64,000 bases of DNA from Sphingomonas sp. (GTDB lineage Bacteria > Pseudomonadota > Alphaproteobacteria > Sphingomonadales > Sphingomonadaceae): positions 48,909-112,908 of the forward strand of contig NZ_JBELMJ010000002.1 in the NCBI RefSeq assembly GCF_042095875.1, read 5' to 3'. Made by a program: the position numbers and the translations under genes. The notes below the pieces were generated by a model. The model worked only from the letters and a program-made list of their open reading frames with translations, did not search any database and was not told the origin of the DNA. Of the stretch, positions 5,763 to 45,467 are shown piece after piece. Numbering within the stretch: the stretch's first letter is position 1; each line of letters begins with the position of its first letter.

Positions 5763-6437
5763 ATGACTCGCTACGCGTTCTACGATCTGGACCGCACGAT
5801 CACGCGCCTGCCGACCTGGTCCGCGTTCCTGCTGTTCGCCGCGCGGCGCCGCGCGCCGTGGCGGCTGGCGCTCGTCCCGGCCGCCGCACTCGCCGCGGTC
5901 GCGCACAAGGGCGGGCTGCTCAATCGCGATCGCCTGAAGGAAGTCATGCACCGCCTGCTGATCGGCGGCGCGGTGTCCGCCGATGACCTTGCCCGCGTCG
6001 CCGATGCCTTCGCCGAGCGTCAGGTCGCGGGCAACGTCCGCGCCGGCGCCGCGCAGCGCATCGCCGCGGACAAGGCCGCCGGCTACCGCGTCGTGCTCGC
6101 CACCGCCGCGCACCGCTTCTACGCCGAGAGGATCGCGCGCCGGCTCGGCATCGCCGACGTGATCGCGACCGAGGCGACGACCGCGTCCGATGGCCGCGTG
6201 CGGCACCACCTGTCGGGCGCCAACGTCTACGGCGCCGCCAAGCTCGCCGCCGTTACTGCCTGGCTTGGCCGTCGGGGCGAGCCGCGGGACTCGCAGCACG
6301 TCCGCTTCTACAGCGACCACCCTACCGACGCGCCCTGCCTCGCCTTCGCCGACGAGGGGTTCGCGGTCCACCCCGACGCACGCCTTCGCGCACTGGCCGG
6401 CGCGAACGGCTGGCCGATCCTCGACTGGACCCGCTGA
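5763..6437 (+). CDS. HAD-IB family hydrolase/phosphatase (SerB-like subfamily)
   Basis: N-terminal motif FYDLDRTIT, and HAD-IB-like length and cap region. The stop overlaps the next start (TGATG). Confidence 0.7.
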   Translation: MTRYAFYDLDRTITRLPTWSAFLLFAARRRAPWRLALVPAAALAAVAHKGGLLNRDRLKEVMHRLLIGGAVSADDLARVADAFAERQVAGNVRAGAAQRIAADKAAGYRVVLATAAHRFYAERIARRLGIADVIATEATTASDGRVRHHLSGANVYGAAKLAAVTAWLGRRGEPRDSQHVRFYSDHPTDAPCLAFADEGFAVHPDARLRALAGANGWPILDWTR

Positions 6438-7159
6438 TGCGCGCGATTATCCTCAGCGCCGGGCGCGGCTCGCGGCTGCTCCCGCTGACCGATCTGATGC
6501 CCAAATGCCTCGTGCCGGTCGGCGGACGCGCGATCCTCGACCATCAGTTGCACGCGCTGGCCGAGGCCGGCGTAGGCGAGGCAATCGTCGTCGCGGGCTA
6601 TCGCCACGATCAGGTCGGCGCGCACCTCGCCACGCATCGCCCGCCGCTTGGCGTCACGCTGCGCTTCAATCCCTTCTGGGCGGTGTCGAGCAGCATCGGC
6701 AGCGTCTGGGCGGCGCGCGACGTGCTCGACCACGCCTTCTGCCTGCTGAACGGCGACACGACGCTGACCGGCCCCATTCTCGCGCGCGCGCTGGCGCACG
6801 ACGGCGAGTACGACCGCGCGGGAGTCGGCTTGGTGGTGGAGCCGATCGCGCGCGCCGACAGCGACGACATGCTGGTCCAGGTCGACGGCGAGCGCGTCGC
6901 CGCGGTGTCGAAGGCGCTGCCGGCCGAACGCGCGACGCACCGCTCGCTCGGCGTCGTCGTCGCGGGCGCGCAGAGCGGCTACCTTCCCGTCCTCGACCGC
7001 GTGATCGCGGGGGCGGACGGGATCAACGCTTACCACCACGACGTCGTCGCCGCGCTCGCCACGCAGGGCGCGGTCCACGCGATCGTCGAGGAGAGCGGCG
7101 GCTGGGTCGAGATCGACCGGCCCGAGGATGTCGAGCGCTGGAACGCGCAGCCGCGATGA
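6437..7159 (+). CDS. Nucleotidyltransferase (LicC-like or sugar/alcohol-phosphate cytidylyltransferase-like)
   Basis: Nucleotide-binding loop MRAIILSAGRGSRLLPLTDLMPKCLVPVGG. ATGA overlap with the following gene. Confidence 0.7.
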   Translation: MRAIILSAGRGSRLLPLTDLMPKCLVPVGGRAILDHQLHALAEAGVGEAIVVAGYRHDQVGAHLATHRPPLGVTLRFNPFWAVSSSIGSVWAARDVLDHAFCLLNGDTTLTGPILARALAHDGEYDRAGVGLVVEPIARADSDDMLVQVDGERVAAVSKALPAERATHRSLGVVVAGAQSGYLPVLDRVIAGADGINAYHHDVVAALATQGAVHAIVEESGGWVEIDRPEDVERWNAQPR

Positions 7160-8286
7160 CCGCGGCTCCGGTCGCCTTCCTGTTCCTCGGCGAAACGCTG
7201 CTGATCCCGCACCTCTTCCCGATCGTGGAGGCGCTCGCCGACGCGCGCCCCGACCTGCCGCTCGACCTCTGGGTCAGCACCTCGACGCACGAGCGATTGC
7301 TCGCCGGCTGGACCGCGCATCTGCCGCACGTCCGCGTCCGCCGCGCCCCCGGCTTTCGCCACCTCGCCGCCGCCACGCCCGGCGAGCGCCCGGTGCTGCC
7401 GCTCAAGCTGCCGATGCTGCTCCGCCTCGCGCCTGCCCTCGCCCGCACCCGCGTCGTCGTCTGCGCCGAACAGACCAGCCTGTGGCTGCCGCGACTGTTC
7501 CCGTGGGCGCGCACGCGCTTCGTCAAGACCTCGCATGGCGTGGGTTCGATGAGCGCGCGCGACGACCGCCGCCGGTTGGCGGCGTCCTACACGCTGGTGC
7601 CGAGCGAGCAGGAGCGCGCCACCTATCTCGCGCGCGGCATGGCGCCCGACCGGATCGAGGCGACCGGCTACGTCAAGGCCGCCTTTCGCCAGCGCACGCC
7701 AGCGCGCACGCTGTTCGCGGACGATCGCCCGGTGCTGCTCTACACCCCGCACTGGCAGGCGCATCGCTCGTCCTGGCCGGCCTGGGGCGCGCAGGTGGTC
7801 GAACAGCTCAGCCAGCAGCGCGACTGGAACGTCATCCTCGCGCCGCACCAGCGCCTGATCGAGCGCGCGCCCGAGGTCCGCGACGTGCTCGCCCGCGTCG
7901 CGCACCTGCCGCACGTCCATGCCGACCTCGACAGTTTCGCGACCGTCGACGGCAGCTACACCGCGGCGGCCGACATCTACCTCGGCGATACGTCGAGTCA
8001 GCTGATCGAGTTCCTGGCCCGCCCACGCTCCGCGGTCTTCCTCGACGCGCACGCGCGCGCCTGGGCGGATGACCCCGCCTACGCGATGTGGCGCGCGGGC
8101 GAGGTCGTCGACGAGCTCGCCGACCTGCTTCCCGCGCTCGCCCGCGCCACCGCGCGCCATGCCGACTTCGCCGCGACCCAGCACGCGATCGCCACCGCCG
8201 CGCTCGGCGACGCGAGCGGTGCCGGCGCTCACCGCGCGGCCGAGGCCGTGCTGCGCGTCCTCGCCAACACCCCACCCCGCCGTTAA
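7156..8286 (+). CDS. Putative TagB/TagF-like (CDP-glycerol glycerophosphotransferase-like) transferase; function uncertain
   Basis: This is the last 376 codons of track ORF 6190..8286, starting MTAAPVAFLF. PVLLYTPHWQAHR, NVILAPHQRL and ADIYLGDTSSQLIEFL resemble the xLYAPTxR / HP / SDxLITDYSS blocks of the teichoic-acid glycerophosphotransferase family. Confidence 0.45.
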   Translation: MTAAPVAFLFLGETLLIPHLFPIVEALADARPDLPLDLWVSTSTHERLLAGWTAHLPHVRVRRAPGFRHLAAATPGERPVLPLKLPMLLRLAPALARTRVVVCAEQTSLWLPRLFPWARTRFVKTSHGVGSMSARDDRRRLAASYTLVPSEQERATYLARGMAPDRIEATGYVKAAFRQRTPARTLFADDRPVLLYTPHWQAHRSSWPAWGAQVVEQLSQQRDWNVILAPHQRLIERAPEVRDVLARVAHLPHVHADLDSFATVDGSYTAAADIYLGDTSSQLIEFLARPRSAVFLDAHARAWADDPAYAMWRAGEVVDELADLLPALARATARHADFAATQHAIATAALGDASGAGAHRAAEAVLRVLANTPPRR

Positions 8287-8296
8287 AGCGCCGCCG

Positions 8297-9421
8297 ATGC
8301 AGCCGACCGAGTCTCTTCAGCCCGCGGTGGTGCCGCTGGGCGACAATCCCGTGCTCCTGTGGGGCATGACCGCGTGCGAGCGGCTGCGCCGCATTGCCGC
8401 CGCGCGGAAACTGGCGTTCGACGACCCGGGGGCGGCGAGCGAGACCGTTATTCTATCCGACCTCGCCTACGTGTTCGATCCCGCCTGGATCGTCTGGCTC
8501 CAGCCGCGCCCCGGTACCGTGCTGACGCGCGAGGGTCGGGTCGTGCTCGCGCACGTCGCCGCCGCCGATCGTGCCGCGTGCGAGCGCGCGATCGTCGAAG
8601 GCGTCGCCATCCCTGCGCACCTCGAACAGGTCGCAGCCGAGCGCGACGAAGGCGTCTTCAACGAAGCGCTGCGCAAGCGTGAGCGCCCCTTCGCTGAGGC
8701 ATTGGTGCCCGCCGCCGTGCCGGCGATCGAGCGCGCCAGCTACGTCGGCGCGTACAAGGGGGTGACCGACCTCCTGACCAAATATCTCTGGCCCGAATGG
8801 GCGTTCGCGCTGACCAGGCTCGCGGCGCGCGTCGGCATCTCACCCAACGGTGTCACCGCGATCGGCTCGGTCTTGTGCATCGTCGCGACGATCGCCTTCT
8901 GGTACGGCTGGTTCTGGACCGGGCTCCTGACCGGGCTCGTCTTCATGGTGCTCGACACCGTCGACGGGAAGCTCGCGCGCTGCACCATCACCTCGTCCAG
9001 GCTCGGCAACGCATGGGACCACGGCGTCGACCTCGTCCACCCGCCGATCTGGTGGTGGGCCTGGGCGGCGGGCTGCGCGCCCTATGGCCGACCGCTGACG
9101 GACGCGACCTTCTGGGCGGTGATCGCGGCGATGCTGTTCGGCTACGTCGTGCAGCGATTGATCGAGGGCGCGTTCATTGTCCGCTTCGGCATGCATATCC
9201 ACGTGTGGGAACGCTTCGACAGCCGCTTCCGATTGGTCACCGCCAGGCGCAATCCCAACATGGTGATCCTGTTCGCCGCGCTGCTGGTCGCGCGGCCCGA
9301 CTGGGGGATCGTCGCGGTGGCGGTGTGGACGATGCTGTCGCTCGTCGTTCACGGCGTGCGGCTGCTGCAGGCGATGGTGCGCGCGCGCCGCGGCGAGCGA
9401 CTGACGAGCTGGCTGGCCTGA
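8297..9421 (+). CDS. CDP-alcohol phosphatidyltransferase family protein with a ~165-aa N-terminal soluble extension
   Basis: Complete signature DTVDGKLARCTITSSRLGNAWDHGVD (D-x2-DG-x2-AR-x8-G-x3-D-x3-D) at nt 8954-9031, followed by multiple TM segments. The start is the ATG at 8297 (MQPTESL), inside track ORF 8069..9421. Confidence 0.85.
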   Translation: MQPTESLQPAVVPLGDNPVLLWGMTACERLRRIAAARKLAFDDPGAASETVILSDLAYVFDPAWIVWLQPRPGTVLTREGRVVLAHVAAADRAACERAIVEGVAIPAHLEQVAAERDEGVFNEALRKRERPFAEALVPAAVPAIERASYVGAYKGVTDLLTKYLWPEWAFALTRLAARVGISPNGVTAIGSVLCIVATIAFWYGWFWTGLLTGLVFMVLDTVDGKLARCTITSSRLGNAWDHGVDLVHPPIWWWAWAAGCAPYGRPLTDATFWAVIAAMLFGYVVQRLIEGAFIVRFGMHIHVWERFDSRFRLVTARRNPNMVILFAALLVARPDWGIVAVAVWTMLSLVVHGVRLLQAMVRARRGERLTSWLA

Positions 9422-9464
9422 GCCGCCGGGTTGTGACCCGCGCGTCGGCGCCCATATCGCATTG

Positions 9465-9944
9465 ATGACACGACGTTTCTTCTACATCGCTGCCGCCGCC
9501 GCAGTGCTGGGCGGCTCTGCGTTCGCGCCCGAGACGGCGGCCGCGCAATCCTGCGTCGGCACGCCGGGCGCGGGCAAGGTGCGACTGGTGGTGAGCGCGA
9601 CCGAAATCCGCAACGCGCACGGCGAAATGGTCTTCACGCTCTACCCCGACGATTCGCGCCGCTTCCTCGCCAAGGGCGGCAAGCTCGCGCGCGTGCGCAC
9701 TCCCGCGCAGGCGCCCGTCACCGTCGCGTGCTTCTGGGTCGCCCCCGGTTCCTACGCGGTGGCAACCTACCACGACGAGAACGGCGATCACGATTTCAAC
9801 CGCACGTTGTTCACGATAAAGGAAGGCTTCGGCTTCTCCAACGACGCCCCCACAACGCTAGGCCTGCCCAGCCTGTCGCGCGTGCGATTCCCGGTCGGTA
9901 ACAGCGGCGCCGCGATCCGCGTGCGCACGCGCTACTCGCGCTAA
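9465..9944 (+). CDS. Secreted DUF2141-family protein
   Basis: Signal peptide MTRRFFYIAAAAAVLGGSAFAPETAAAQ. The pattern YHDENGDHDFNRTLFTIKEGFGFSND is typical of DUF2141. The ATG at 9465 directly follows the TTG at 9462. Confidence 0.7.
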   Translation: MTRRFFYIAAAAAVLGGSAFAPETAAAQSCVGTPGAGKVRLVVSATEIRNAHGEMVFTLYPDDSRRFLAKGGKLARVRTPAQAPVTVACFWVAPGSYAVATYHDENGDHDFNRTLFTIKEGFGFSNDAPTTLGLPSLSRVRFPVGNSGAAIRVRTRYSR

Positions 9945-10002
9945 GCGCCGTGGCGCGTAGCGCGATGCTGCACCATAGGGACACAATTTCGCCGGATCGC
10001 GC

Positions 10003-11109
10003 ATGCAAGAGCGATGTTACAATCCCGTGTGGAGCGGCGACCAAGTGACTTCTTTTTTCAAATCCGTCGCGCTCGCGCGCACTGACGGCGCCGCGCTGGT
10101 ACGTGCGCCGCTCGCCTTCGCGCGCGGCGATGGGCGTGATGCGCTGGTTGTTCCCTTCCCCCTACCCCCGCTGCGCGGGATCAACCCGTCGCGAGTCGGC
10201 GTCATCAGCAACCCGCGCAGCCGCCGCAACCGGCAGGGTAATCCGGTCCACCGCCGCGCCGGCGCGACGTCCGAGATGCTGGTCGCCGAACCCGCGACCA
10301 AGGACGCGCTGGCATTGGCACTCGCCGACTTCGCCGCGCGTGGGGTGGAGTTGATCGTGGTCGACGGCGGCGACGGCACGGTGCGCGACGTGCTGAGCGC
10401 CGCCCCGCTCGCCTTCGGCGCTGCCATGCCGCCGGTTGCGGTGATCCCCTCGGGCAAGACCAACGCGCTGGCGCTCGATCTCGGCATCCCGTGGGACTGG
10501 TCGGCGGGCGACGCGCAGGCGGCACTCACCGCCGGGCGGCTGGACACGCGCCAGCCGGTCGAGATCACGGGTGAGGACAGCGTAACGCTGCGCGGTTTCC
10601 TGTTCGGTGCCAGCGCCTTCACGCGCGCGACCGACCTGGCGCAGCGCACGCACGACATCGGCGCGTTCGGCGGCGTCGCGGTCGGACTGTCGGTGCTGGG
10701 CGCGGTGTTGCAGACGATGTTCGCAGGCAGCGGCAACGCGTGGCGCGCGGGCGAGCGCGTGCGCATCGCCGGTGTGGCCGACGGCACCGCGCGCGAGCAC
10801 GATTTGTACCTATTGCTCGGCTCCACGCTGCGCCGTTTGCCGATCGGGCTGAAGCCGCTCGGCCAGGGAGGCGAGGGCTTGAACATCCTGGCGGTGGAGG
10901 CCCCGCCGCGGCTGCTCCCGCTCGCCGTGCCCGCGATCCTTGCCGGACGCGAGGGCGGGTGGCTCGCACGCGCGGGCTATCATCACCGCCACGACGCGCC
11001 GCACAGTCGCCTGACGCTGCCCGGCGGCTTCGTGCTCGACGGCGAGAGCTATCCCGGCGGCAGCTACGACGTACGCGCGGGCGAGCCGATCACCTTCGTC
11101 ACCCCGTGA
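10003..11109 (+). CDS. Diacylglycerol-kinase-family lipid kinase (DAGK catalytic domain)
   Basis: RVGVISNPRSRRN, VVDGGDGTVRDVL and AVIPSGKTNALALDLG. The start is uncertain: ATG 10003 or in-frame GTG 10045. An extended -10-like TGTTACAAT at 10015-10023 favours the later start. Confidence 0.7.
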   Translation: MQERCYNPVWSGDQVTSFFKSVALARTDGAALVRAPLAFARGDGRDALVVPFPLPPLRGINPSRVGVISNPRSRRNRQGNPVHRRAGATSEMLVAEPATKDALALALADFAARGVELIVVDGGDGTVRDVLSAAPLAFGAAMPPVAVIPSGKTNALALDLGIPWDWSAGDAQAALTAGRLDTRQPVEITGEDSVTLRGFLFGASAFTRATDLAQRTHDIGAFGGVAVGLSVLGAVLQTMFAGSGNAWRAGERVRIAGVADGTAREHDLYLLLGSTLRRLPIGLKPLGQGGEGLNILAVEAPPRLLPLAVPAILAGREGGWLARAGYHHRHDAPHSRLTLPGGFVLDGESYPGGSYDVRAGEPITFVTP

Positions 11110-12005
11110 CGCTGCGCGCGTTCGTCGCGGCCGAGCTCGAGCGCGCGGTACCGCCGATGGTCGCCGAGGCCGCTGGTTCGATCGCTGCGGCGCTGAACGG
11201 TGACGCGGTGCTGTTCTACGGATCGGTGCTGCGCACCGCCGACCTGGACGGTGTGCTCGATTTCTACGTACTCCGCCGCTCCGGCACGGCGACGGGCGTG
11301 AGCCGCCACGTCTGGCCCGACGTCAGCTACCACGAGGTCGCGGTCGGTGACCGGGTGATCCGCGCCAAGGTCGCGACCATGGACCTAGACACGTTTGAGC
11401 GCGCCACCGCCGGCCGCTCGCGCGACACGACGATCTGGGCGCGATTCGTGCAGCCGGTGGCGCTGATCCAGGTCGCCGACGCCGCGACGCGCGATCGCAT
11501 CGTCGCCGCGGTCACCGACGCTGGGGTCACCGCCGCGCGCTTCGCCGCGCTGCACGGGCCGGCCCGTGGGGCCGCCGGCGATTACTGGCGCAGCCTGTTC
11601 CGCGCCACCTACGCGACCGAGCTGCGCGTCGAGGCGCCGGGTCGCGAGGACCAGATCCTGTCCTACGATCGCGCGCGCTACGACGCGCTGCTGCCGCTCG
11701 CCTGGGACGCGGCCGGGGTAGCGTTCGCGCGCGACATGGACACGCTTGCCCCCGACCTGCCCACGTCTCAGCGACAGGCGCTCGCCCGCCGCTGGTCGCG
11801 CGCGTGCCGCTGGGGCAAGAAGCTCAACGCGCTTCGGCTGGTCAAGGCCGCCTTTACCTTCGACGGCGCGACCCGCTACGCGCTGTGGAAGATCGAGCGC
11901 CACACCGGACTGTCGCTGCCGCTGACGCCGTTTCGCGAGCGCCATCCCCTGATCGCCGCGCCGGGTGTGCTGTGGCGCTTGTGGCAGCATCAGGCGGCGC
12001 GCTGA
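11106..12005 (+). CDS. Conserved hypothetical protein (299 aa), possibly a nucleotidyltransferase fold
   Basis: Strong GC3 bias. The GTG start overlaps the kinase stop (GTGA) and its stop overlaps the next start (TGATG). The motif LFYGSVLRTADLDGVLDFYVL is reminiscent of NTase-fold enzymes, but this is a weak assignment. Confidence 0.55.
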   Translation: MTLRAFVAAELERAVPPMVAEAAGSIAAALNGDAVLFYGSVLRTADLDGVLDFYVLRRSGTATGVSRHVWPDVSYHEVAVGDRVIRAKVATMDLDTFERATAGRSRDTTIWARFVQPVALIQVADAATRDRIVAAVTDAGVTAARFAALHGPARGAAGDYWRSLFRATYATELRVEAPGREDQILSYDRARYDALLPLAWDAAGVAFARDMDTLAPDLPTSQRQALARRWSRACRWGKKLNALRLVKAAFTFDGATRYALWKIERHTGLSLPLTPFRERHPLIAAPGVLWRLWQHQAAR

Positions 12006-12778
12006 TGTCGGACTCGCCTGCCGCGCTGATCCTCGCGGGTTCGCGCGGGACGGACGATCCGCTGGCCGGTTACGCCGGCGTGTCGGACAAGGCGCTGATC
12101 GTGCTGGGCGACACGACGATCCTCGCACGCGTCGTCGCCGCTGTGCGCGCCGCCGGCATCTCGCGGATCGGCGTGTCGGCGAACAGCGCGCCCGTGCGGG
12201 CCGAGGCCGAGCGCTGCGGCGCCGAACCGCTCGTCGCCGCGGCAGGACCTAGCGCCAGCGCCGCCACCGCGCTGGACGTGCTCGGCACACCGCTGCTCGT
12301 CACGACCGGCGACCACGCGCTGCTGCGGCCGGAGTGGATGCGCGATTTCGTCGCGCGCGTACCCGCCGCCGCGGACGTCGCGGTGCTGCTCGCGCGGCGC
12401 GACGCGATCGAGGCCGCGGCGCCCGGGTCAAGGCGGACCTACCTGCACTTCGCCGACGGCGACTGGTCGGGGTGCAACCTGTTCTATCTTGCCACCCCGC
12501 GCGCCGCCCGCGTGATCGCGTTGTGGCAGGAGGTGGAGCGCGACCGCAAGCGGCCATGGCGGATCGTGCGCCGGCTGGGGCCGGGGCTGCTGCTGCGCTA
12601 TCTGCTCGGGCGATTACCGCTGGCCGAGGCGATCGCGCACCTGGGCGCGCGCGCCGGCGTGAGGGCGGTGGCGATCGCCGCGCCGGACGGACTGGCCGCG
12701 GTCGATGTCGACAAGCCCGCCGACCTAGACTTCGTGCGCGCGCATCTGGATCAGCTACGGCCCGCGACGCGCACGTAG
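12005..12778 (+). CDS. MobA-like NTP-transferase family protein
   Basis: N-terminus ALILAGSRGTDDPLAGYAGVSDKALIVLGDTTILARVV is followed by LLVTTGDHALL, the typical GT-A/MobA-like nucleotidyltransferase layout. Confidence 0.6.
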   Translation: MSDSPAALILAGSRGTDDPLAGYAGVSDKALIVLGDTTILARVVAAVRAAGISRIGVSANSAPVRAEAERCGAEPLVAAAGPSASAATALDVLGTPLLVTTGDHALLRPEWMRDFVARVPAAADVAVLLARRDAIEAAAPGSRRTYLHFADGDWSGCNLFYLATPRAARVIALWQEVERDRKRPWRIVRRLGPGLLLRYLLGRLPLAEAIAHLGARAGVRAVAIAAPDGLAAVDVDKPADLDFVRAHLDQLRPATRT

Positions 12779-14094
12779 CGCCACACCATCACGCCCAGCA
12801 GCAGCGCGCCGACCAGAGACGCACCGAACACGCCGATGCTCGCCCCCGCCGCGCCGATCCGCGGCAGCAGCACCAGCATCAGCACGAACTGCGCCGCCAC
12901 CCCGATCGCGCGCGCGGTCATCGCCGAGGCGGAGCGGTCGCCCGCCAGCAACACCGGCTCGAACCCGACAACCGCCAGGTCGATCGACCCCGCCGCGGCC
13001 AGCCACAGCAGCAGCGGATAGGCACCGGCGTAGGCGGCATCGCCGCCGACCGCGACCAGCACGGGCTTGCCAATCAGGGCGACCAGCAACAGGATGACCA
13101 GTGCCGCGCCCGCGCTCGCGCCGAACATGCGGCGCAGCGCGCGACCCAGCTCCCGCGGCGCGACGTCGCGCAGGGTGCGGACCACCTCGGGAAATGCCGC
13201 GCGCGAGATCAGCTGCGACAGCTTGGTCAGCGCCTGCGCCAGCTGCAGCGCGAGCCGGAACGCGCCCGCGGCCGCCGGGCCGCCGAACGCGCCGACGAAC
13301 ATCAGCGGCAATTGCTTGGTCGCGAGCCCCAGGCTCGACACCGCGTTGCTGCTGATCACGAAGCGCGGCAGCCGCGGGTTCTCCGCGCGCAACTGCGCCA
13401 CGTCGACGCGCGCGCGCCGGATCAGCGCGAGGTCGCCGCTGCGCGCCAGGGTAATCCAGTACATTGCCGCGGTGGCGAGCTCGGCCGCGGTCCACGCCCA
13501 CAGGAACGCGTGCAGCGTCGGCGAGAGGAACGCCGCCGCAACCGCGCCGACGAAGCGCACTGCCGGGGTCACGCTGTCCGCCGCCGCCGCCGCGCGAAAG
13601 CGGTCGGTAAGCCGCAGCACGCCGAGCGCAGCCGAGCGGATCGACAGCAGCTGCGCCGCGGTGAAGATCGCGGTGTCGCGCAGCAGCGACGGGCGTATCC
13701 CCAGCCGGTCGCTCCACACCGCCAGGATCGCGGCGGCGAGGCCCAGGCCGACCACCGCGCTTCCCGCGTCGAGCAGCATGCACGCGCGGTACAATCGCCC
13801 CAGCGCCGCCTCGTCGCCGCGGGTGCGATGGTCGATGCCGAAGCGCACCACCACCTGCCACGTCTGAAACCCGACCAGCAGCGCCAGCCCCTGCGCCGCG
13901 CCGGTGACGAGCGCGAACCGGCCGAAGTCAGCGAGGCCGAGCGTGCGCGTCGCGATGCCGAGATACAGCAGCGATAGCACCGCCAGGACGCCGCGGCTGG
14001 CGAGCAGCCAGCCGAGGTTGGCGAGCACCGCACGCACGCCGGAGGCGGGCGCGGCGGAACGCGGGGACGCTGCGGGGGATGACCGGTCCGTCAT
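12751..14094 (-). CDS. MOP-superfamily polysaccharide/oligosaccharide flippase (Wzx-like)
   Basis: 447 aa and highly hydrophobic, with about 12 predicted TM segments. The N-terminus VLANLGWLLASRGVLAVLSLLYLGIATRTLGLADFGRFAL is typical of polysaccharide-biosynthesis flippases. Its 3' end overlaps the convergent gene by 28 nt. Confidence 0.65.
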   Translation of the reverse strand: MTDRSSPAASPRSAAPASGVRAVLANLGWLLASRGVLAVLSLLYLGIATRTLGLADFGRFALVTGAAQGLALLVGFQTWQVVVRFGIDHRTRGDEAALGRLYRACMLLDAGSAVVGLGLAAAILAVWSDRLGIRPSLLRDTAIFTAAQLLSIRSAALGVLRLTDRFRAAAAADSVTPAVRFVGAVAAAFLSPTLHAFLWAWTAAELATAAMYWITLARSGDLALIRRARVDVAQLRAENPRLPRFVISSNAVSSLGLATKQLPLMFVGAFGGPAAAGAFRLALQLAQALTKLSQLISRAAFPEVVRTLRDVAPRELGRALRRMFGASAGAALVILLLVALIGKPVLVAVGGDAAYAGAYPLLLWLAAAGSIDLAVVGFEPVLLAGDRSASAMTARAIGVAAQFVLMLVLLPRIGAAGASIGVFGASLVGALLLGVMVWRYVRVAGRS

Positions 14095-35380: not shown

Positions 35381-37471
35381 ATGAAGCTGCTCGCCAACGC
35401 GCGCCAGGCAGCACTGCCCGCCGCGATCCTGCTGCTCGTCGTGCTGATGGTGGTGCCGATCCCGGCCGCCATGCTCGACGTGTTCTTCATCATGAACATC
35501 ACGATCAGCCTCGCGGTGCTGATGGTGGCGCTGAACGCGGAGAAGCCGCTCGATTTCTCCGCCTTCCCGACCGTGCTGCTGTTCGCGACGCTGTTCCGGC
35601 TCGGGCTGAACGTCGCCTCGACCCGCGTCGTGCTGGTCCACGGTCACGAGGGCGAGTCGGCCGCGGGGCACGTAATCGAGGCGTTCGGCACCTTCGTGAT
35701 CGGCGGCGACTACGTCGTCGGGCTGTTCGTGTTCGCGATCATCGTCATCATCAACTTGATCGTCGTGACCAAGGGCGCGGGGCGTGTGTCCGAGGTGTCG
35801 GCGCGCTTCACGCTCGACGCGTTGCCGGGCAAGCAGATGGCGATCGACGCCGACCTGAACGCCGGGCTCATTACGCCAGACGAGGCGAAGAAGCGCCGCA
35901 TCGACGTCGCGACCGAGGCCGAATTCTACGGATCGATGGATGGTTCGTCGAAGTTCGTGAAGGGCGACGCGGTCGCCGGACTGCTGATCCTCGCCGCCAA
36001 CGTGATCGGCGGGCTGATCCTGGGTCCGGTAAGCCACGGCCTCGGCATCGCCAAAGCGGCGCAGACCTACACCATGCTCGCGATCGGCGACGCGCTGGTC
36101 GCGCAGGTGCCGGCATTGCTCTTGTCGATCGCCGCCGCGTCGATCGTGACCCGCGTCAAGTCGGAGAAGGACCTGGCGGGACAGATCGGCAGCCAGTTCG
36201 GCTCGGCGCGCACTTGGACGCCGGTCGCCGCGATCCTGACGCTGCTCGGCGTGCTGCCGGGCATGCCGCACCTCGTCATCCTGCCGATCGCCGCGATCGC
36301 CGGGTTCGCCGCGTGGAAGCTCAACCAGATCGCGAAGCGCCCCGCCCCCGCCGAGCCCGTGGCCGTAGCCGAGGCGCCCGACCTGTCGAAAATCGGCTGG
36401 GACGAGGTGACCGAGGGCATGATGGTCAACCTCGACATCGGCTACGGGCTGGTGCCGCTGGTCGACGAGCGCCGCGGTGCGCCGCTGATGGCGCGGATTA
36501 CCGGGGTGCGCCGGCAATTGTCGAAGGAGCTGGGCTTCGTCGTCCCGCAGGTGCGCGTGCGCGACGACATCAACCTCGCGCCCTATACCTATCGCCTGAT
36601 GCTGGGCGGCGTGTGCGTCGGCGAGGATCAGGTCTCGCCCGACGAGATGCTGGCGCTCGACACCGGACAGGGTTTCGGCGAACTGCTCGGCAAGAAGGCG
36701 AAGGATCCGACCTTCGGCCTGGAGGCGACCTGGATCGCGCCGGGCGACACGGACGCCGCGACCGGTCAGGGTTACCTGGTGGTCGACGCCGGCACCGTGA
36801 TCGCGACGCATCTCAACCACGCGCTCGGCGCCCATGCGTCGGACCTGCTCGGCGCCGACGAGGTGCAGGCGCTGCTCGATGGCCTCAAGGAACGCTCGCC
36901 GCAGCTGGTCGCGTCGCTGTGCCCGCAGCCGCTGCCGCTCACCACGCTGACCGCGGTGCTCCGCGCGCTGCTGGCCGAGGGCATCCCGCTCAAGGAATTC
37001 CGCCGCATCGCCGCCGCGATCTCGGCCTCGGCGCAGCACAGCGCCAGCGCGGAGGAGATCGTCGAGCTGGCGCGGCCGCTGCTGGGCGGGCTCATCATCC
37101 AGAAGCTGGCGGGCGTGCGCGAGCCGCTGCGCGTCATGACGCTGGAGGGCGGGCTGGAGCAATTGCTCGGCCAGGCGATGCGCGCCGACCCGTCGCGCCG
37201 CCACGTCATCGAGCCCGACCTCGGCCGCCGCATCGTCGACGCGCTGCAGGCCGCCGCCCAGCCGATGATCGCCGAGGCCAAGCCCTTCGCGCTCGTCGTC
37301 CAGCCCGCGATCCGCGTGGCTGTCCGCAAACTCGTTCGAACCGTTCTGCCGGATACCCCTGTCATGAGCTTCTTCGAAGTACCCGAGGACAAGGCCGTCG
37401 AGGTCGTCGCCGTGATCGGCGGCGCAGGCCAGCCCGCGCACGTCGCGCACCAGCAGGCGCTGGCAGCATGA
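35381..37471 (+). CDS. flhA: Flagellar type III export gate protein FlhA
   Basis: 696 aa with FVIGGDYVVGLFVFAIIVIINLIVVTKGAGRVSEVSARFTLDALPGKQMAIDADL. Confidence 0.97.
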   Translation: MKLLANARQAALPAAILLLVVLMVVPIPAAMLDVFFIMNITISLAVLMVALNAEKPLDFSAFPTVLLFATLFRLGLNVASTRVVLVHGHEGESAAGHVIEAFGTFVIGGDYVVGLFVFAIIVIINLIVVTKGAGRVSEVSARFTLDALPGKQMAIDADLNAGLITPDEAKKRRIDVATEAEFYGSMDGSSKFVKGDAVAGLLILAANVIGGLILGPVSHGLGIAKAAQTYTMLAIGDALVAQVPALLLSIAAASIVTRVKSEKDLAGQIGSQFGSARTWTPVAAILTLLGVLPGMPHLVILPIAAIAGFAAWKLNQIAKRPAPAEPVAVAEAPDLSKIGWDEVTEGMMVNLDIGYGLVPLVDERRGAPLMARITGVRRQLSKELGFVVPQVRVRDDINLAPYTYRLMLGGVCVGEDQVSPDEMLALDTGQGFGELLGKKAKDPTFGLEATWIAPGDTDAATGQGYLVVDAGTVIATHLNHALGAHASDLLGADEVQALLDGLKERSPQLVASLCPQPLPLTTLTAVLRALLAEGIPLKEFRRIAAAISASAQHSASAEEIVELARPLLGGLIIQKLAGVREPLRVMTLEGGLEQLLGQAMRADPSRRHVIEPDLGRRIVDALQAAAQPMIAEAKPFALVVQPAIRVAVRKLVRTVLPDTPVMSFFEVPEDKAVEVVAVIGGAGQPAHVAHQQALAA

Positions 37472-38757: not shown

Positions 38758-39654
38758 TTAGCCGAGCAGCTTGAGCACGCCCTGCGCCGACTGGTTCGCC
38801 TGGCTGAGCATCGCGGTCGACGCCTGGCTGAGGATCTGCGCCTTGGCGAGCGACGTCGTCTCGGTCGAGAAGTCCGCGTCCTCGATCCGGCTGCGCGCGT
38901 CCGACAGGTTGGTCGCGTTCGAGGTCATGTTGTTGACCGCCGATTCGAGCCGGTTCTGTGCGGCGCCGAGGCCGGCGCGGGTGGTGGAAATCTGCTTCAG
39001 CGCGTCGTCGAAAGCTTGAAGTGTCGGCACGGCCGGCGGCGTGGTTGTTCCGTTCGCAGTAACGGGAACCGAGCTGCCGGTCATGCCGCCGTTCGCCGCA
39101 GTGAAATCGACGATGTCGGCGAGCTTGCTCTTGGTGTTGTCCGAGCTGTCGAGATCGGCGACCGAGATCTGCAACGTGTCGTTGGCGTTCGCGCCGGTCT
39201 GAATGTCGAACGTCTTCGCTGCGCCATCGGTCGCACCGCCGGTGAACAGCGTCTTGCCGTTAAATTGCGTGTTCTTGACCACCGAGTAGATCTGGTTGGC
39301 GAGCGCGTCCTGCTCCTTGTAGATGTTCTGCTTGTCGTCGTCCGAATAGGTGCCGTTCTGCGACTGCACGGTCAGCTCGCGCATGCGCTGGAGCATGTTG
39401 GTGACCTCGTCGAGCGCGCCCTCGGCGGTCTGCGCCAGGCTGATGCCGTCGTTGGCGTTGCGAACGCCCTGGTTCATGCCCTTGATCTGCGCGGTCATCG
39501 AGCTGGCGATGGCGAGGCCGGCGGCGTCATCCTTGGCCGAGTTGATGCGCTTGCCGGTCGACAGGCGCTCCATCGACGTGGCGAGCGACTTGCTCGCCAT
39601 CGTCGAGGCGTTGGCGGCGCGGAGCGAGGAAATGTTGCTGTTGATCACGGTCAT
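38758..39654 (-). CDS. fliC: Flagellin (paralogue 1, 298 aa)
   Basis: [49 protein letters not shown] at the N-terminus and [30 protein letters not shown] at the C-terminus. I chose the ATG at 39654. Confidence 0.95.
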
Positions 39655-39716
39655 GGCAGGGTCTCCATCATCGGCACCGCTGCTGCCCCCACGGCGCGCA
39701 CGATGCGTTCGCACCA

Positions 39717-39744
39717 TCAAACGACCGGTCGGCGCGTCCTTTAA
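39717..39744 (-). promoter_or_regulatory. Sigma28-type promoter of flagellin 1
   Basis: The minus strand reads TTAA-N15-GTCGTTTGA, 62 nt upstream of the ATG. Confidence 0.65.
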
Positions 39745-39876: not shown

Positions 39877-40749
39877 TCAGCCCAGCAGCTTGAGCACGCC
39901 CTGCGCCGACTGGTTGGCCTGGCTGAGCATCGCGGTCGACGCCTGGCTGAGGATCTGCGCCTTGGCGAGCGCGGTCGTCTCGGTCGAGAAGTCCGCGTCC
40001 TCGATCCGGCTGCGCGCGTCGGACAGGTTGGTGGCGTTGTTGGTCATGTTGTTGACCGCCGACTCGAGCCGGTTCTGCGATGCGCCCAAGGAAGCGCGCT
40101 GCGTCGCCACCGCTGACAATGCACCGTCATAATCTTCGAGCGTCGCGGCGGCGCGCAGCGACGCATCGGTCGTGACCGCACCATTCGCGTCGCGCACCGC
40201 GAACGTCACGACTTGCGAAATCGACTTGGTGTTGGCGACATAGCCGGTGGCCATGTTCGAGAAGCTGAGCGACACGGTGTCGCTGGTATTGGCGCCCGTC
40301 TGGATCGAAACCACACCGGCCGTGCCGGCAGTGCCGTCGAACAGGTTCTTGCCGTTGAACGTGGTGGTCTTGATCACCGAATCGATCTGCTTGGCGAGCG
40401 CGGTCTGCTCGGTGGTGATGTTGGTCTTGTCGGTGTCCGAATAGGTGCCGTTCTTCGACTGGACCTGCAGCTCGCGCATGCGCTGGAGCATGTTGCTGAC
40501 CTCGTCGAGCGCGCCTTCGGCGGTCTGCGCCATCGAGATGCCGTCGTTGGCGTTCCGAATGCCCTGGTTCATGCCCTTGATCTGCGCGGTCATGCTGGAC
40601 GCGATCGCGAGGCCGGCGGCATCGTCCTTCGCCGAGTTGATGCGCTTGCCGGTCGACAGGCGCTCCATCGAGGTCGACAGCATGTCCTGTGCCTTGATCC
40701 CCGCGTTCGAGGCGCGCAGCGATGAGATGTTGCTTCCGATAACGGTCAT
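39877..40749 (-). CDS. fliC: Flagellin (paralogue 2, 290 aa)
   Basis: [49 protein letters not shown], and a C-terminus identical in type to paralogue 1. Confidence 0.95.
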
Positions 40750-40983: not shown

Positions 40984-41802
40984 TCAGCCGAGCAGCTTCA
41001 GCACGCTCTGCGTCGACTGGTTCGCCTGGCTGAGCATCGCGGTCGACGCCTGGCTGAGGATCTGCGCCTTGGCGAGTGCGGTCGTCTCGCTCGAGAAGTC
41101 GGTGTCCTCGATTCGGCTGCGCGCGTCGGACAGGTTGGTCATGTTCGAGGTCGTGTTGTTGACCGCCGATTCGAGCCGGTTCTGCGTCGCACCCAGGCTC
41201 GCCCGCGCCGTCGACACTGCCTTCAGCGCATTGTCGTAGATCGTCAACGAACCGCTTGTCGTGTCGCTAGCGAACGTCAGGGCAGTCACCGCCGCCACGT
41301 CGCCGGTACCCAGGTTGGCCGACTGCAACGTAATGGTGTCGGTGCTGTTCGCGCCGGTTTGGATGGTGAAGCCAGTCGCGGCACCCGCATCGAACAGCTT
41401 CTTGCTGTTGAACTCGGTGTTGGTCACCACCGCGGAGATCTGATCCTTCAGCGCCTTCTGCTCGGCACGGATGTTGGTCTTGTCGCTATCGGCGTAGGTG
41501 CCGTTCAGCGACTGGACGCTCAGCTCGCGCATGCGCTGGAGCATGTTGCTGACCTCGTCGAGCGCGCCCTCGGCGGTCTGCGCCATCGAGATGCCGTCGT
41601 TGGCGTTGCGGATGCCCTGGCTCATGCCCTTGATCTGCGCGGTCATCGACGAGCTGATCGCGAGGCCGGCGGCGTCGTCCTTCGCCGAGTTGATGCGCTT
41701 GCCGGTCGACAGGCGCTCCATCGAGGTCGCGAGCGACTTGCTCGCCATCGTCGACGCGTTGGTGGCGCGCAGCGCCGAGGTGTTGGATGCGATAACGGTC
41801 AC
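40984..41802 (-). CDS. fliC: Flagellin (paralogue 3, 272 aa, GTG start)
   Basis: (V/M)[56 protein letters not shown] precedes the GTG at 41802. The C-terminus is [16 protein letters not shown]. Confidence 0.93.
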
Positions 41803-43769: not shown

Positions 43770-45467
43770 ATGAGCAACGCACTCGCCCCCGCGAATAATC
43801 TCGTGCCCGAGAAGTTCGCCAACCCGCTGCGCCAGATCCAGGGCGCGCTGGCCCAGCCCGCGGTGCGCCGCGCGGGGCCTATGGCGCTGATGGTTGGGTT
43901 GATCGGCGCGGCCGGGCTCGCCTGGTCGGCGCTGTCCGCCGCGCCGCAGAAGACGCTGTTCGCAGGGCTCCCCGACGCCGACAAGGCGGCGGTGACGAGC
44001 GCGCTGACCGCCGCCAACATCCCGAGCCAGATCGACGACGGCGCGGGTACGCTGACCGTCAACGAGGAGGATTATTCCAAGGCGCGGCTGCTGCTCGCCG
44101 GGCAAGGCCTGCCCAAGGCGGCGCCGGGCGGCTACGCGATCCTCGACCAATTGCCGATGGGCGTTTCCCGCGCGGTCGAGGGCGAGCGGTTGCGCCAGGC
44201 GCGCGAGACCGAGATCGCGCGCTCGATCCAGGAGATCGACGCGGTCGCGGAGGCGCGCGTCCACCTGGCGGTGCCCGAATCGACCGTGTTCGTGCGCGAC
44301 AATGCCGCGCCGTCGGCGTCGGTGGTCATCAAGTTGCAGGCCGGACGCTCGCTGTCGGACGCGCAGGTGGCGTCGATCATCAATCTCGTCGCCTCGTCGG
44401 TGCCGGGGATGAAGCCCGACAGCGTCACCGTGGTCGATCAGCTCGGCGCGTTGTTGAGCAAGTCGGGCGACGGCGGCAGCGACAGCGGCGACGCACGGTT
44501 GCGCGTGCAGCGGCAGGTCGAGGACAAGGTACGCCAGCAGCTGAACGCGCTGCTGACGCCGCTGGTCGGCGCGGGCAATTTCACCGCCGAGGTGCAGGCC
44601 GACGTCAACATGGACGAGACCAGCGCCACGCGCGAGAGCTACGACAAGAACGGTATCCTGCGCGCCGAGACGGGCAATTGGACCGGCAACCAGGCGAACG
44701 CGCAGGCGCCGGGCGGTATACCCGGCGCGCTGAGCAACACGCCGCCGCCCGCCTCACAGCTGTCGACGCCGCAGCCCGCCACGGGCAACCCCGGCACGCC
44801 CGCGAGCGCACCGGTCGCGGGCGGCCCGGCGCCCGATGCCAACAAGCAGTCGGACTCGTTCCAGCGCGCCTATGACCTGGGCAAGGAAGTGTCGGTGACG
44901 CGCGCGGCACCCGGCAGCATCAAGCGCCTCTCTGTCGCGGTGCTGCTGCGCGACCCCGAGAAGGGTCGCCGCACCGCGATGGAGATCAACCAGATCGACA
45001 GTTTGGTGAAGTCCGCGGTCGGCTTCGACGGCAATCGGCAGGACCAGGTGACCGTCATTAGCCGCAAGTTCGCGGGCGCCGACGATGCGGCCAAGGACGG
45101 CCCGGCGTGGTACGACAACAATTGGCTGCCGGTGCTGGCGCGCAACCTGACCGCGATCGTCATCGCGCTGCTGGTCCTGCTGCTGGGCGTGCGGCCGATC
45201 GCCAAGGCGTTGATGAAGAAGCGCGAAGAGGCGACCCCTGCCCTGGCCGCGCCCGCCGGGGTCGACGCGGACGGCAATCCGCTGCCCGCGGTGGACGCCG
45301 ACGGCAACCCCGCGATCACGGTCGCGCCCCCGGTCAGCCTGGAGCAGATCGCGGCGAGCCGCAGCTACGACGAGAAGATCGGCGCGGTGCGCGGCTTCAC
45401 CCGCGATAATCCGGCGCGCGCGGCGCTGGCGGTGCGTGACATGATCATGGCGGACGCGAAATCGTGA
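43770..45467 (+). CDS. fliF: Flagellar MS-ring protein FliF
   Basis: 565 aa with LFAGLPDADKAAVTSALTAANIPSQI, ELARSIQ-like EIARSIQEIDAVAEARVHLAVPE, and a C-terminal FliG-binding tail. Confidence 0.93.
   Translation: MSNALAPANNLVPEKFANPLRQIQGALAQPAVRRAGPMALMVGLIGAAGLAWSALSAAPQKTLFAGLPDADKAAVTSALTAANIPSQIDDGAGTLTVNEEDYSKARLLLAGQGLPKAAPGGYAILDQLPMGVSRAVEGERLRQARETEIARSIQEIDAVAEARVHLAVPESTVFVRDNAAPSASVVIKLQAGRSLSDAQVASIINLVASSVPGMKPDSVTVVDQLGALLSKSGDGGSDSGDARLRVQRQVEDKVRQQLNALLTPLVGAGNFTAEVQADVNMDETSATRESYDKNGILRAETGNWTGNQANAQAPGGIPGALSNTPPPASQLSTPQPATGNPGTPASAPVAGGPAPDANKQSDSFQRAYDLGKEVSVTRAAPGSIKRLSVAVLLRDPEKGRRTAMEINQIDSLVKSAVGFDGNRQDQVTVISRKFAGADDAAKDGPAWYDNNWLPVLARNLTAIVIALLVLLLGVRPIAKALMKKREEATPALAAPAGVDADGNPLPAVDADGNPAITVAPPVSLEQIAASRSYDEKIGAVRGFTRDNPARAALAVRDMIMADAKS

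Follow-up and report, generated by a model that had tools for sequence, protein, structure and literature searches.

A Sphingomonas operon as a probable rearranged counterpart of the Caulobacter cpg pathway for phosphoglycerate sphingolipids

Ceramide diphosphoglycerate (CPG2) is an anionic sphingolipid that allows Caulobacter to live in the absence of lipid A, and it is also the polymyxin target of this bacterium. Here, we analysed a cluster of nine genes (g1 to g9, Table 1) in a 64-kb stretch of Sphingomonas sp. DNA (hereafter the window) and compared it with the pathway that makes ceramide phosphoglycerate (CPG) and CPG2 in Caulobacter crescentus, as described by Zik 2022 (PMC9393093), Dhakephalkar 2023 (PMC10331486), Olea-Ozuna 2024 (PMC11324152) and Dhakephalkar 2025 (PMC12275187), with enzyme roles also given in PMC13228409. 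The Caulobacter genes encode a nucleotidyltransferase (CC_1152, CpgD), a MobA/CofC-like protein (CC_1153), a calcineurin-type phosphoesterase (CC_1158), a cytidine diphosphate (CDP)-alcohol phosphotransferase with a cytoplasmic N-terminal domain (CC_1159, CpgA), a ceramide kinase (CC_1160, CpgB), a protein with a Tam41-like domain (CC_1161, CpgC), a flippase (CC_1166) and a CDP-glycerol glycerophosphotransferase-like protein (CC_1167, reported as IPR007554) (PMC11324152, supplementary text). Genetically, cpgB and cpgC are required for CPG, and cpgA, cpgD and CC_1153 for CPG2, to which CC_1158 contributes (PMC9393093, PMC11324152); CpgB phosphorylates ceramide in vitro (PMC10331486). CPG2 biosynthesis is half solved, since the reactions of CpgC, CC_1153, CC_1158 and CC_1167 remain to be defined. 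Orthologues of the cpg genes in Sphingomonas wittichii and Zymomonas have already been tabulated (PMC11324152).

Relationship of the cluster to the Caulobacter cpg genes

Our analysis indicates that the cluster is most probably the Sphingomonas counterpart of the Caulobacter cpg pathway, which would convert ceramide into an anionic phosphosphingolipid of the phosphoglycerate type (CPG/CPG2 or a near variant of them) and flip it across the inner membrane. It is a known pathway in a new, rearranged form, namely one operon with a few lineage-specific twists, and it refines the pathway described in 2022-2026 without overturning the current understanding. The earlier note, made from the DNA letters, had proposed an undescribed pathway matching none known; this proposal was not supported, as seven of the nine genes match Caulobacter CPG/CPG2 genes described since 2022, and the cluster could be placed in a known phospholipid pathway by homology and literature rather than by a Pfam name. 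The same note had guessed at a phosphosphingolipid head group in an alphaproteobacterium lacking lipopolysaccharide (LPS), and this idea gains support from the cpg homology; its alternative, a polyol-phosphate polymer with a lipid anchor, is a minority possibility.

The Caulobacter reference was a 21-kb locus of Caulobacter sp. BE264 (L057), and identities to C. crescentus are therefore inferred through this very close relative. Of the primers published for cloning and deletion in C. crescentus, most matched L057 with one or two mismatches and at the expected relative positions, which makes it usable as a reference for CC_1152 to CC_1167; the primer for the start of CC_1159 had four mismatches, and the primer for the end of CC_1153 and both CC_1161 primers were not found there. 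An exact search of genome contigs with the published CC_1159 forward primer (27-mer) gave no match, the representative genome differing at this site. The cluster members of 20 representative CpgA-like proteins carried only Pikeienuella, Ca. Cybelea and Methylomirabilota names, with no Caulobacter among them.

Window proteins were compared with L057 by BLASTP, and the open reading frames (ORFs) of L057 were searched back against the whole window by tblastn. Within this scope (64-kb window against 21-kb Caulobacter locus), seven of the nine proteins were reciprocal best matches to Caulobacter CPG2 genes, being homologous over their full or near-full length at 28-56% identity (Table 1), and the reverse search returned exactly g2, g3, g4, g6, g7, g8 and g9. 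Both loci thus share the same enzyme set: a ceramide kinase (predicted for the window), a Tam41-like protein, a CDP-alcohol phosphotransferase with an N-terminal domain, two soluble nucleotidyltransferases, a MOP flippase and a TagF-like protein. Furthermore, g6, g7 and g8 are as near to Caulobacter as Phenylobacterium is. CC_1158 has no counterpart in the window by domain.

The two loci also differ in several respects. Unlike in Caulobacter, the window genes form one compact operon apart from spt, bCerS, the acyl carrier protein gene and LptC2F2G2; there is no HIT (CC_1157) gene in the window; and a HAD-IB phosphatase stands in place of the metallophosphoesterase CC_1158. The window has a DUF2141 gene, which is shared by some other Caulobacter species but not by L057, and both its CpgD-like and its TagF-like protein are of a divergent subtype specific to Sphingomonas. 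In Caulobacter the TagF-like gene is found at the far end of the cluster, in the window within the operon. We also observed that in L057 (cpgA 9986-11113, cpgB 11032-12024) cpgB, by its annotated or primer-defined start, overlaps the 3' end of cpgA by about 80 nt, unlike in the window, where g4 and g6 are separated by the DUF2141 gene.

Table 1 Genes of the window cluster and their matches in the Caulobacter reference locus
Gene	Position	Strand	Length (aa)	Description	Caulobacter match	Identity	Aligned (aa)	E-value
g1	5763..6437	+	224	HAD-IB family phosphatase				
g2	6437..7159	+	240	CpgD-like CTP:phospho-acid cytidylyltransferase, divergent Sphingomonas-lineage subtype	CpgD	34%	251	1.4e-38
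g3	7156..8286	+	376	GT-B-fold TagF-like transferase, CC_1167 homologue	CC_1167	34%	292	1.3e-42
g4	8297..9421	+	374	CpgA-like CDP-alcohol phosphotransferase, AF2299-type N-terminal cytoplasmic domain	CpgA	42.5%	372	3.9e-90
g5	9462..9944	+	160	Secreted DUF2141 protein				
g6	10003..11109	+	368	Predicted CpgB-type ceramide kinase	CpgB	44%	314	1.5e-70
g7	11106..12005	+	299	CpgC orthologue, GTG start, putative Tam41-type nucleotidyltransferase	CpgC	48%	298	1.7e-84
g8	12005..12778	+	257	MobA/CofC-like nucleotidyltransferase, CC_1153 orthologue	CC_1153	56%	246	2.1e-78
g9	12751..14094	-	447	MOP/Wzx-type flippase, CC_1166 homologue	CC_1166	28%	424	4.3e-29

The domains of the individual proteins fit this assignment. 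Pfam and NCBIfam confirmed most of the domain calls made earlier (HAD-IB, NTP_transferase, CDP-OH_P_transf with an N-terminal domain, DUF2141, DAGK_cat, NTP_transf_3 and Polysacc_synt). The g4 protein carries CDP-OH_P_transf at residues 182-286, after an N-terminal domain of about 170 aa (Pfam), with an intact signature (D220-x2-DG-x2-AR-x8-G-x3-D-x3-D); its profile matched the phosphatidylinositol phosphate (PIP) synthase 6wm5 at 1.2e-14, and AF2299 (4o6m) aligned over both domains. The g6 protein matches DAGK_cat at 6.3e-13 (Pfam), has a GGDG motif at residue 122 and is predicted to be an active kinase. For g8, PF12804 (NTP_transf_3) was found at 1.4e-13, its nearest solved relative being the uncharacterised TTHA0179, and g9 matches PF01943 (Polysacc_synt) and PF13440 and has several hydrophobic segments in a simple Kyte-Doolittle scan. 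PDB searches with g1, g5 and g8 were uninformative, yielding uncharacterised proteins at most.

The g7 product had been described as an unknown protein of 299 aa, and it indeed has no Pfam match, the Pfam Tam41 model included; it is nevertheless identifiable as CpgC. Its GTG start overlaps the g6 stop, echoing the succession of cpgB and cpgC in Caulobacter. In its AlphaFold2 (AF2) model (mean confidence, pLDDT, 90.7), the top five PDB matches were Tam41 CDP-diacylglycerol (CDP-DAG) synthases (6ig4, 6ig2, 7ecd), with E-values of 2e-8 to 5e-7 and a template-modelling (TM) score of about 0.5 over some 280 columns, which agrees with the Tam41/Mmp37 InterPro domain reported for CC_1161. The predicted fold resembles mitochondrial and Firmicutes Tam41/Mmp37 CDP-DAG synthases over about 280 residues and suggests nucleotidyl transfer onto a lipid phosphate; unlike these enzymes, g7 shares only 10-16% identity with them and presumably acts on ceramide-1-phosphate.

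The same enzymes could be read as a route based on DAG, in which the kinase would give phosphatidic acid (PA), the Tam41-like protein CDP-DAG, and the CpgA-like enzyme with the phosphatase an unusual anionic glycerophospholipid. In its favour, CpgB accepts both DAG and ceramide as substrates in vitro, Tam41 enzymes synthesise CDP-DAG, and ceramide genes are missing from the window. The logic would be that of PIP synthase with PIP phosphatase, or of PgsA with phosphatidylglycerophosphate (PGP) phosphatase, where a CDP-alcohol phosphotransferase works with a CDP-activated partner and is followed by a dedicated phosphatase; the g4 catalytic domain also has PIP synthases as its best matches among solved structures and NCBIfam models. 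However, g4 reaches 37.6 bits on the NCBIfam PIP synthase model NF045883 against a cut-off of 170, has the extra N-terminal domain, and belongs to a pathway that is predicted to place a phosphoglycerate head group on a ceramide-based lipid and has no inositol genes; PIP synthesis was rejected on this score and on its missing partner genes. Moreover, deletion of cpgB in Caulobacter leaves PA unchanged and abolishes CPG, sphingolipid genes occur in nearly all genera with cpgB, and 38 of the 51 loci described below include Spt and bCerS. Because the cpgB deletion spares PA and the family travels with spt and bCerS, we regard a DAG-based phospholipid as very unlikely.

Co-conservation across taxa and a proposed exchange of phosphatases

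To follow the gene families beyond the window, contigs were scanned with an alignment of 40 diverse CpgA-like proteins, whose first sequence was a Pikeienuella protein so that Sphingomonas genomes would not fill the list; 80 named loci were returned. The nine window proteins, together with another seven from Caulobacter, served as queries, and neighbourhoods were counted in the 51 loci with a CpgA homologue that reached 19 kb or more; these come from many phyla. The genes proved to be co-conserved, as the earlier note had proposed checking: CpgD-like and MobA-like genes were each present in 47/51 loci and Tam41-like genes in 45/51, followed by LptF2/G2 (41), HIT (39), Spt (38), bCerS (38), the kinase (36), the CC_1158-type metallophosphoesterase (MPE; 32), the flippase (24), DUF2141 (21), and TagF-like and HAD-IB genes (13 each). 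The recurrent order was D-1153-CerS-LptG2-LptF2-HIT-MPE-A-B-C-Spt-...-Aas-Wzx-(TagF). It was found in Caulobacter and Phenylobacterium, in the gammaproteobacteria Nevskia, Stagnimonas and Hydrocarboniphaga, and in metagenome-assembled genomes (MAGs) of Lysobacteraceae, Terriglobia and Verrucomicrobiia. Variovorax, which extends the order to betaproteobacteria, and Steroidobacteraceae have the same block, with the kinase missed by the search there, and Hyphomonadaceae show a permuted order, [CpgA][HAD][CpgD].

The block also occurs outside Proteobacteria, MAG assignments being taken as given: a Terriglobia MAG (L034) includes Spt, and the shorter contig of a Verrucomicrobiia MAG (L029) has bCerS and LptF2/G2 with no Spt match. 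CpgA-like proteins are further named from Eremiobacterota and Methylomirabilota MAGs (P0252, P0414). Zik et al. 2022 (PMC9393093) found CpgC homologues only in Caulobacterales and Sphingomonadales.

A search of a representative set of 1.84 billion proteins gave 1211 families related to g4, among which natural fusions join the CpgA-like enzyme to a MobA-like protein (P0241), a Tam41-like protein (P0281, P0356), the kinase (P0305, P0344, P0354) or Wzx (P0360). These fusions place g4, g6, g7, g8 and g9 in one process, independently of gene order. In a separate observation, some CpgA-like proteins of about 750-790 aa (P0278, P0283, P0307) have a C-terminal extension of about 350 aa after a hydrophobic, Ala-rich linker; this extension resembles none of the window genes and could be a periplasmic domain.

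The fusions bear on a further explanation, that the cluster makes a wall or capsule polyol-phosphate polymer, or a solute like di-myo-inositol phosphate (DIP), with no link to a membrane lipid and following the logic of TagD/TagF or IPCT-DIPPS. Nucleotidyltransferases, a CDP-alcohol phosphotransferase, a TagF-like gene and a Wzx flippase are all present, and there are weak NCBIfam matches to IPCT/DIPPS. Against such a product, the core members include the lipid kinase and the Tam41-like lipid nucleotidyltransferase, each of which also occurs in fusions with the CpgA-like enzyme; the genes have their orthologues in a sphingolipid pathway that genetics has proven; and the cluster lacks an inositol-phosphate synthase, genes for glycerol or ribitol phosphate and a priming glycosyltransferase. 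The IPCT/DIPPS scores were 25-41 bits against a cut-off of 580. We therefore give this explanation hardly any weight. DIP synthesis itself was rejected (NF041135: g2 41 bits, g4 25 bits; no MIPS-like gene in the cluster), as was classical teichoic acid synthesis on curated cut-offs and missing partner genes.

A lineage-specific change concerns the phosphatase. The g1 protein matches PF12710 at 4.7e-30 and TIGR01490 at 108.6 bits (cut-off 98.3) and has a DxDxT motif at residues 8-12. Genes for homologous proteins (37-48% identity) are placed immediately between those for CpgA and CpgD in loci of Hyphomonadaceae, Ca. Nitrotoga, Sphingomonadales and Rhodospirillales, and the HAD gene almost always adjoins the CpgD-like gene. 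None of the 51 loci has both a HAD-IB gene and a CC_1158-type gene; 13 have HAD only, 32 CC_1158 only and six neither (Fisher P=5.7e-8, with kinship ignored), and the loci with HAD are spread over eight or more separate lineages. This looks like a non-orthologous displacement, and we propose g1 as a functional stand-in for the metallophosphoesterase CC_1158. If the two enzymes do the same job, their mutual exclusion implies a dephosphorylation step and hence a phosphorylated intermediate, in agreement with the partial CPG-to-CPG2 defect of the CC_1158 mutant. The absence of CC_1158 from H. neptunium and S. wittichii has been noted without mention of the HAD gene (PMC11324152), which by gene numbering would be HNE_1580 in H. 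neptunium.

A related observation comes from Hephaestia caeni (L086), where an endonuclease/exonuclease/phosphatase-family gene (PF03372; 7373-8086, minus strand) is divergent from the CpgD-like gene, at the position that holds the HAD-IB phosphatase in the window. PF03372 is the fold of sphingomyelinases and inositol phosphatases, and this gene may be a third alternative phosphoesterase of the pathway.

The second addition is g5, which matches PF09912 at 9.8e-21 and begins with a signal-peptide-like N-terminus (MMTRRFFYIAAAAAVLGGSAFAPETAAAQ). The 21 loci with DUF2141 have it within 10 kb of CpgA and include Caulobacter, Phenylobacterium, Hyphomonadaceae, Stagnimonas and Kiloniellaceae; it lies directly beside the CC_1158 gene in several Caulobacter and Phenylobacterium species (L053, 8503-9000; L043, ~8557; L039, ~6900). 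No DUF2141 gene was found in L057, the close relative of C. crescentus, and no mention of one was found in the CPG literature consulted. DUF2141 also occurs beside crtG in Sphingomonadales. The DUF2141 protein may be a periplasmic accessory factor of the cpg pathway; that it helps to handle envelope lipids in the periplasm is only a guess.

Among other sphingomonads, Hephaestia keeps the window order from g2 to g9 (g2-g3-g4-g5-g6-g7-g8-g9) and Pacificimonas keeps it without g5, while two other Sphingomonas loci (L081, L082) have the blocks g2-g3-g4 and g5-g6-g7-g8 separated by an asnB-like gene and g9. HAD and DUF2141 genes are variable across Sphingomonadaceae loci, and short Logan contigs from the same strain agree with the window. 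The linkage to spt and bCerS is lost in L081-L083 too, and S. wittichii and Z. mobilis have lost it for some of the pathway (PMC11324152); such linkage, present in 38/51 loci yet lost in these sphingomonads, is typical and not obligatory. S. wittichii (Rhizorhabdus; Swit_1306-1309, Swit_3902/3903), compared here by its published description (PMC11324152), is a member of the same taxonomic order and has the same gene families, likewise without a CC_1158 orthologue and with genes scattered away from parts of the ceramide cluster. Unlike the window, it has CpgB/CpgC beside spt, a second site holds CpgA/CpgD/CC_1153 and a HIT gene, and its CpgD is of the canonical type, 54% identical to Caulobacter CpgD against 34% for g2.

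The asnB-like gene encodes a glutamine amidotransferase (GATase_7 + Asn_synthase) and lies in or next to the cpg operon of other Sphingomonas and Pacificimonas (L081/L082, 11339-13126, minus strand; L083, 15631-17448, plus strand), the copies being 66% mutually identical. The enzyme could amidate a head-group carboxyl, or the gene could be a passenger. As a tenth core member it was rejected, being absent from the window and the other ~80 loci.

The divergent CpgD-like and TagF-like proteins

The g2 protein (NTP_transferase / NTP_transf_3, Pfam) scores 125 bits against CpgD and at most 58 bits against any solved NTP-transferase, in a PDB copy that apparently predates the 2026 CpgD structures. 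A 2026 structure preprint gives 11 contact residues of CpgD (G12, R16, T88, N90, T93, N110, G111, M147, K161, S170, W201), and we scored g2 at these positions and at the neighbouring D112. Ten of the 12 positions are kept: G12, R16, N110, G111, D112, M147, K161 and S170 are the same residue, and T88S and T93S were counted as kept, these variants being common in other CpgD homologues. The remaining two, N90S and W201Y, are present in 5/5 Sphingomonas-type sequences and 0/52 others; Asn90 of CpgD hydrogen-bonds both the ribose and the glycerate according to the same preprint. Canonical CpgD proteins share 44-63% mutual identity across alpha-, beta- and gammaproteobacteria and Terriglobia, and g2 falls outside that clade.

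The g3 protein had been called TagB/TagF-like, a label that is plausible and weakly supported. Its family profile matched the TagF-like polymerase Cps3D (8qoy) at E=0.0056 and TarL at E=0.16, and its AF2 model (pLDDT 90.3) has a GT-B fold. There is no Pfam or NCBIfam match to g3, PF04464 included, and the top structural matches were UDP-GlcNAc 2-epimerases and GT-B glycosyltransferases; since these neighbours are other GT-B enzymes, the fold alone is not diagnostic for TagF. PF04464 was found in 1/120 g3 homologues, and some database sources name homologues CDP-glycerol glycerophosphotransferase. Like TagF/TarL and Cps3D, g3 combines the GT-B fold with weak profile similarity in the C-terminal, donor-binding half (YxPxW and DxSS-type motifs); unlike them, it is a short single module, and the cluster has no TagD/TarI-type CDP-glycerol or CDP-ribitol synthase, the partner cytidylyltransferase being of the CpgD/LicC type. 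The TagF-like protein, although dismissed as unrelated in Caulobacter, may belong to the cpg pathway.

Taken together, comparison of the sequences indicates that g2 and g3 are a co-diverged pair of the Sphingomonas lineage, with two predicted active-site changes in g2. This co-divergence, the HAD-IB/CC_1158 exclusion and the membership of DUF2141 go beyond the published cpg accounts that were consulted.

A cluster of the same ancestry could have another product: g2 would prepare a donor that differs from CDP-2-glycerate or goes beyond it, g3 would polymerise it, and a longer poly(phospho-acid or polyol) chain would arise on ceramide, a polymer like teichoic acid with a sphingolipid anchor. The two genes are translationally coupled (ATGA at 7156-7159), and both are long-branch outliers, whereas g6, g7 and g8 are not; N90S and W201Y are fixed in the lineage, and the g3 family has its similarity to TagF-like polymerases. 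TagF-like genes adjoin CpgD or CpgA in several other lineages as well, and higher-order phosphoglycerate polymers could not be excluded by Zik et al. (PMC9393093). On the other hand, the glycerate-pocket residues of CpgD (Met147, Lys161, Asn110 and Ser170) are all kept in g2, divergence alone is no proof of a new substrate, the similarity to TagF is weak, with structure searches indicating only a GT-B fold, and no polymer has been reported. Although a variant or polymeric head group would be compatible with all the data, we consider a different product unlikely.

Several points weigh against assigning the cluster to a CPG/CPG2-type product. At E<=1e-5 (tblastn), no homologues of spt, bCerS, LptF2/G2, HIT or CC_1158 were found in the 64-kb window, so that only homology ties the cluster to ceramide. 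The literature consulted yielded no report of CPG from Sphingomonas sensu stricto, the reactions catalysed by CpgC, CC_1153 and CC_1158 have yet to be solved in Caulobacter itself, and CC_1167 was judged 'probably unrelated' to the pathway there. In addition, Sphingomonas-type g2 proteins are 50-62% identical among themselves and 30-37% to every canonical CpgD, and for g3-type proteins identity is 60-68% inside the lineage against 28-36% to the CC_1167 type; because both are outliers and g2 carries N90S, the donor, and so the head group, may differ from that of CPG2.

A bolder proposal is that LPS-less Sphingomonas rebuilt the cpg pathway as one operon in which the co-diverged g2 (N90S and W201Y in the substrate and metal pocket) and g3 extend the head group beyond CPG2, to a poly(phosphoglycerate) or a mixed phospho-acid/polyol chain on ceramide, and in which the HAD-IB/MPE interchange marks a hidden dephosphorylation step common to all cpg systems. 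We consider this proposal unlikely. If it were true, the polymer on ceramide would be a sphingolipid-anchored, teichoic-acid-like polyanion that helps to replace LPS.

Proposed route, gene layout and flanking regions

Returning to the favoured assignment, a cpg-type pathway, the Caulobacter data suggest the following route. Ceramide would be made elsewhere in the genome and phosphorylated by g6, a CpgB-type ceramide kinase whose orthologue in Caulobacter acts on ceramide in vitro. The Tam41 fold predicted for g7 would let it act on ceramide-1-phosphate, most likely giving CDP-ceramide, as Tam41 gives CDP-DAG; this fold supports the idea of a CDP-activated ceramide phosphate raised by Olea-Ozuna et al., and the step would lead to the first phosphoglycerate unit, consistent with the need for CpgC in Caulobacter genetics. 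The g2 protein would make a CDP-activated phospho-acid donor, by analogy with the CDP-2-D-glycerate shown in Caulobacter, from which g4 would transfer the second phosphoglycerate, as Caulobacter genetics suggests. A further donor may be supplied or activated by g8, whose counterpart CC_1153 is genetically required in Caulobacter. Replacing CC_1158, as their mutual exclusion suggests, g1 would remove the phosphate from a phosphorylated intermediate; g9 would flip the finished lipid, and g3 (TagF-like) and g5 (periplasmic DUF2141) would be accessory genes. A complete cpg operon suggests that naturally LPS-free Sphingomonas carry phosphoglycerate sphingolipids beside their known glycosphingolipids.

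Reading of the ORFs and junctions showed that the nine genes are tightly packed at 5763-14094 of the window, whose DNA is 72% GC. Apart from the g2/g3 junction given above, start and stop codons overlap at g1/g2 (TGATG at 6435-6439, with one nucleotide common to the g1 stop and the g2 start), g6/g7 (GTGA at 11106-11109) and g7/g8 (TGATG at 12003-12007), and the convergent g8 (end 12778) and g9 (end 12751) overlap by 28 nt. The packing, the four start/stop overlaps and the convergent overlap had all been pointed out before and were confirmed; four overlaps at seven same-strand junctions are typical of an operon and unremarkable alone. The G+C content at third codon positions (GC3) is 0.82-0.93 across the cluster genes, which supports the chosen frames in DNA of this composition. 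For g3 and g7, NCBI has proteins of 100% identity under the name 'hypothetical protein [Sphingomonas sp.]'. Nothing informative came from scanning the region for promoters and terminators, Rfam families and tRNAs.

Upstream of the cluster lie purE/purK, and downstream a short-chain dehydrogenase/reductase (SDR), a methyltransferase and aminopeptidase N; as these flanking genes are unrelated, the cluster boundaries hold. Elsewhere in the window, a large flagellar regulon spans 21000-59000 and includes FlgK, FlgE, FlhA (35381-37471), FliF (43770-45467), FliM and FliD (57002-58510). It contains three flagellin genes in tandem on the minus strand (38758-39720, 39877-40749 and 40984-41802), whose high GC3 gives rise to long spurious antisense ORFs.

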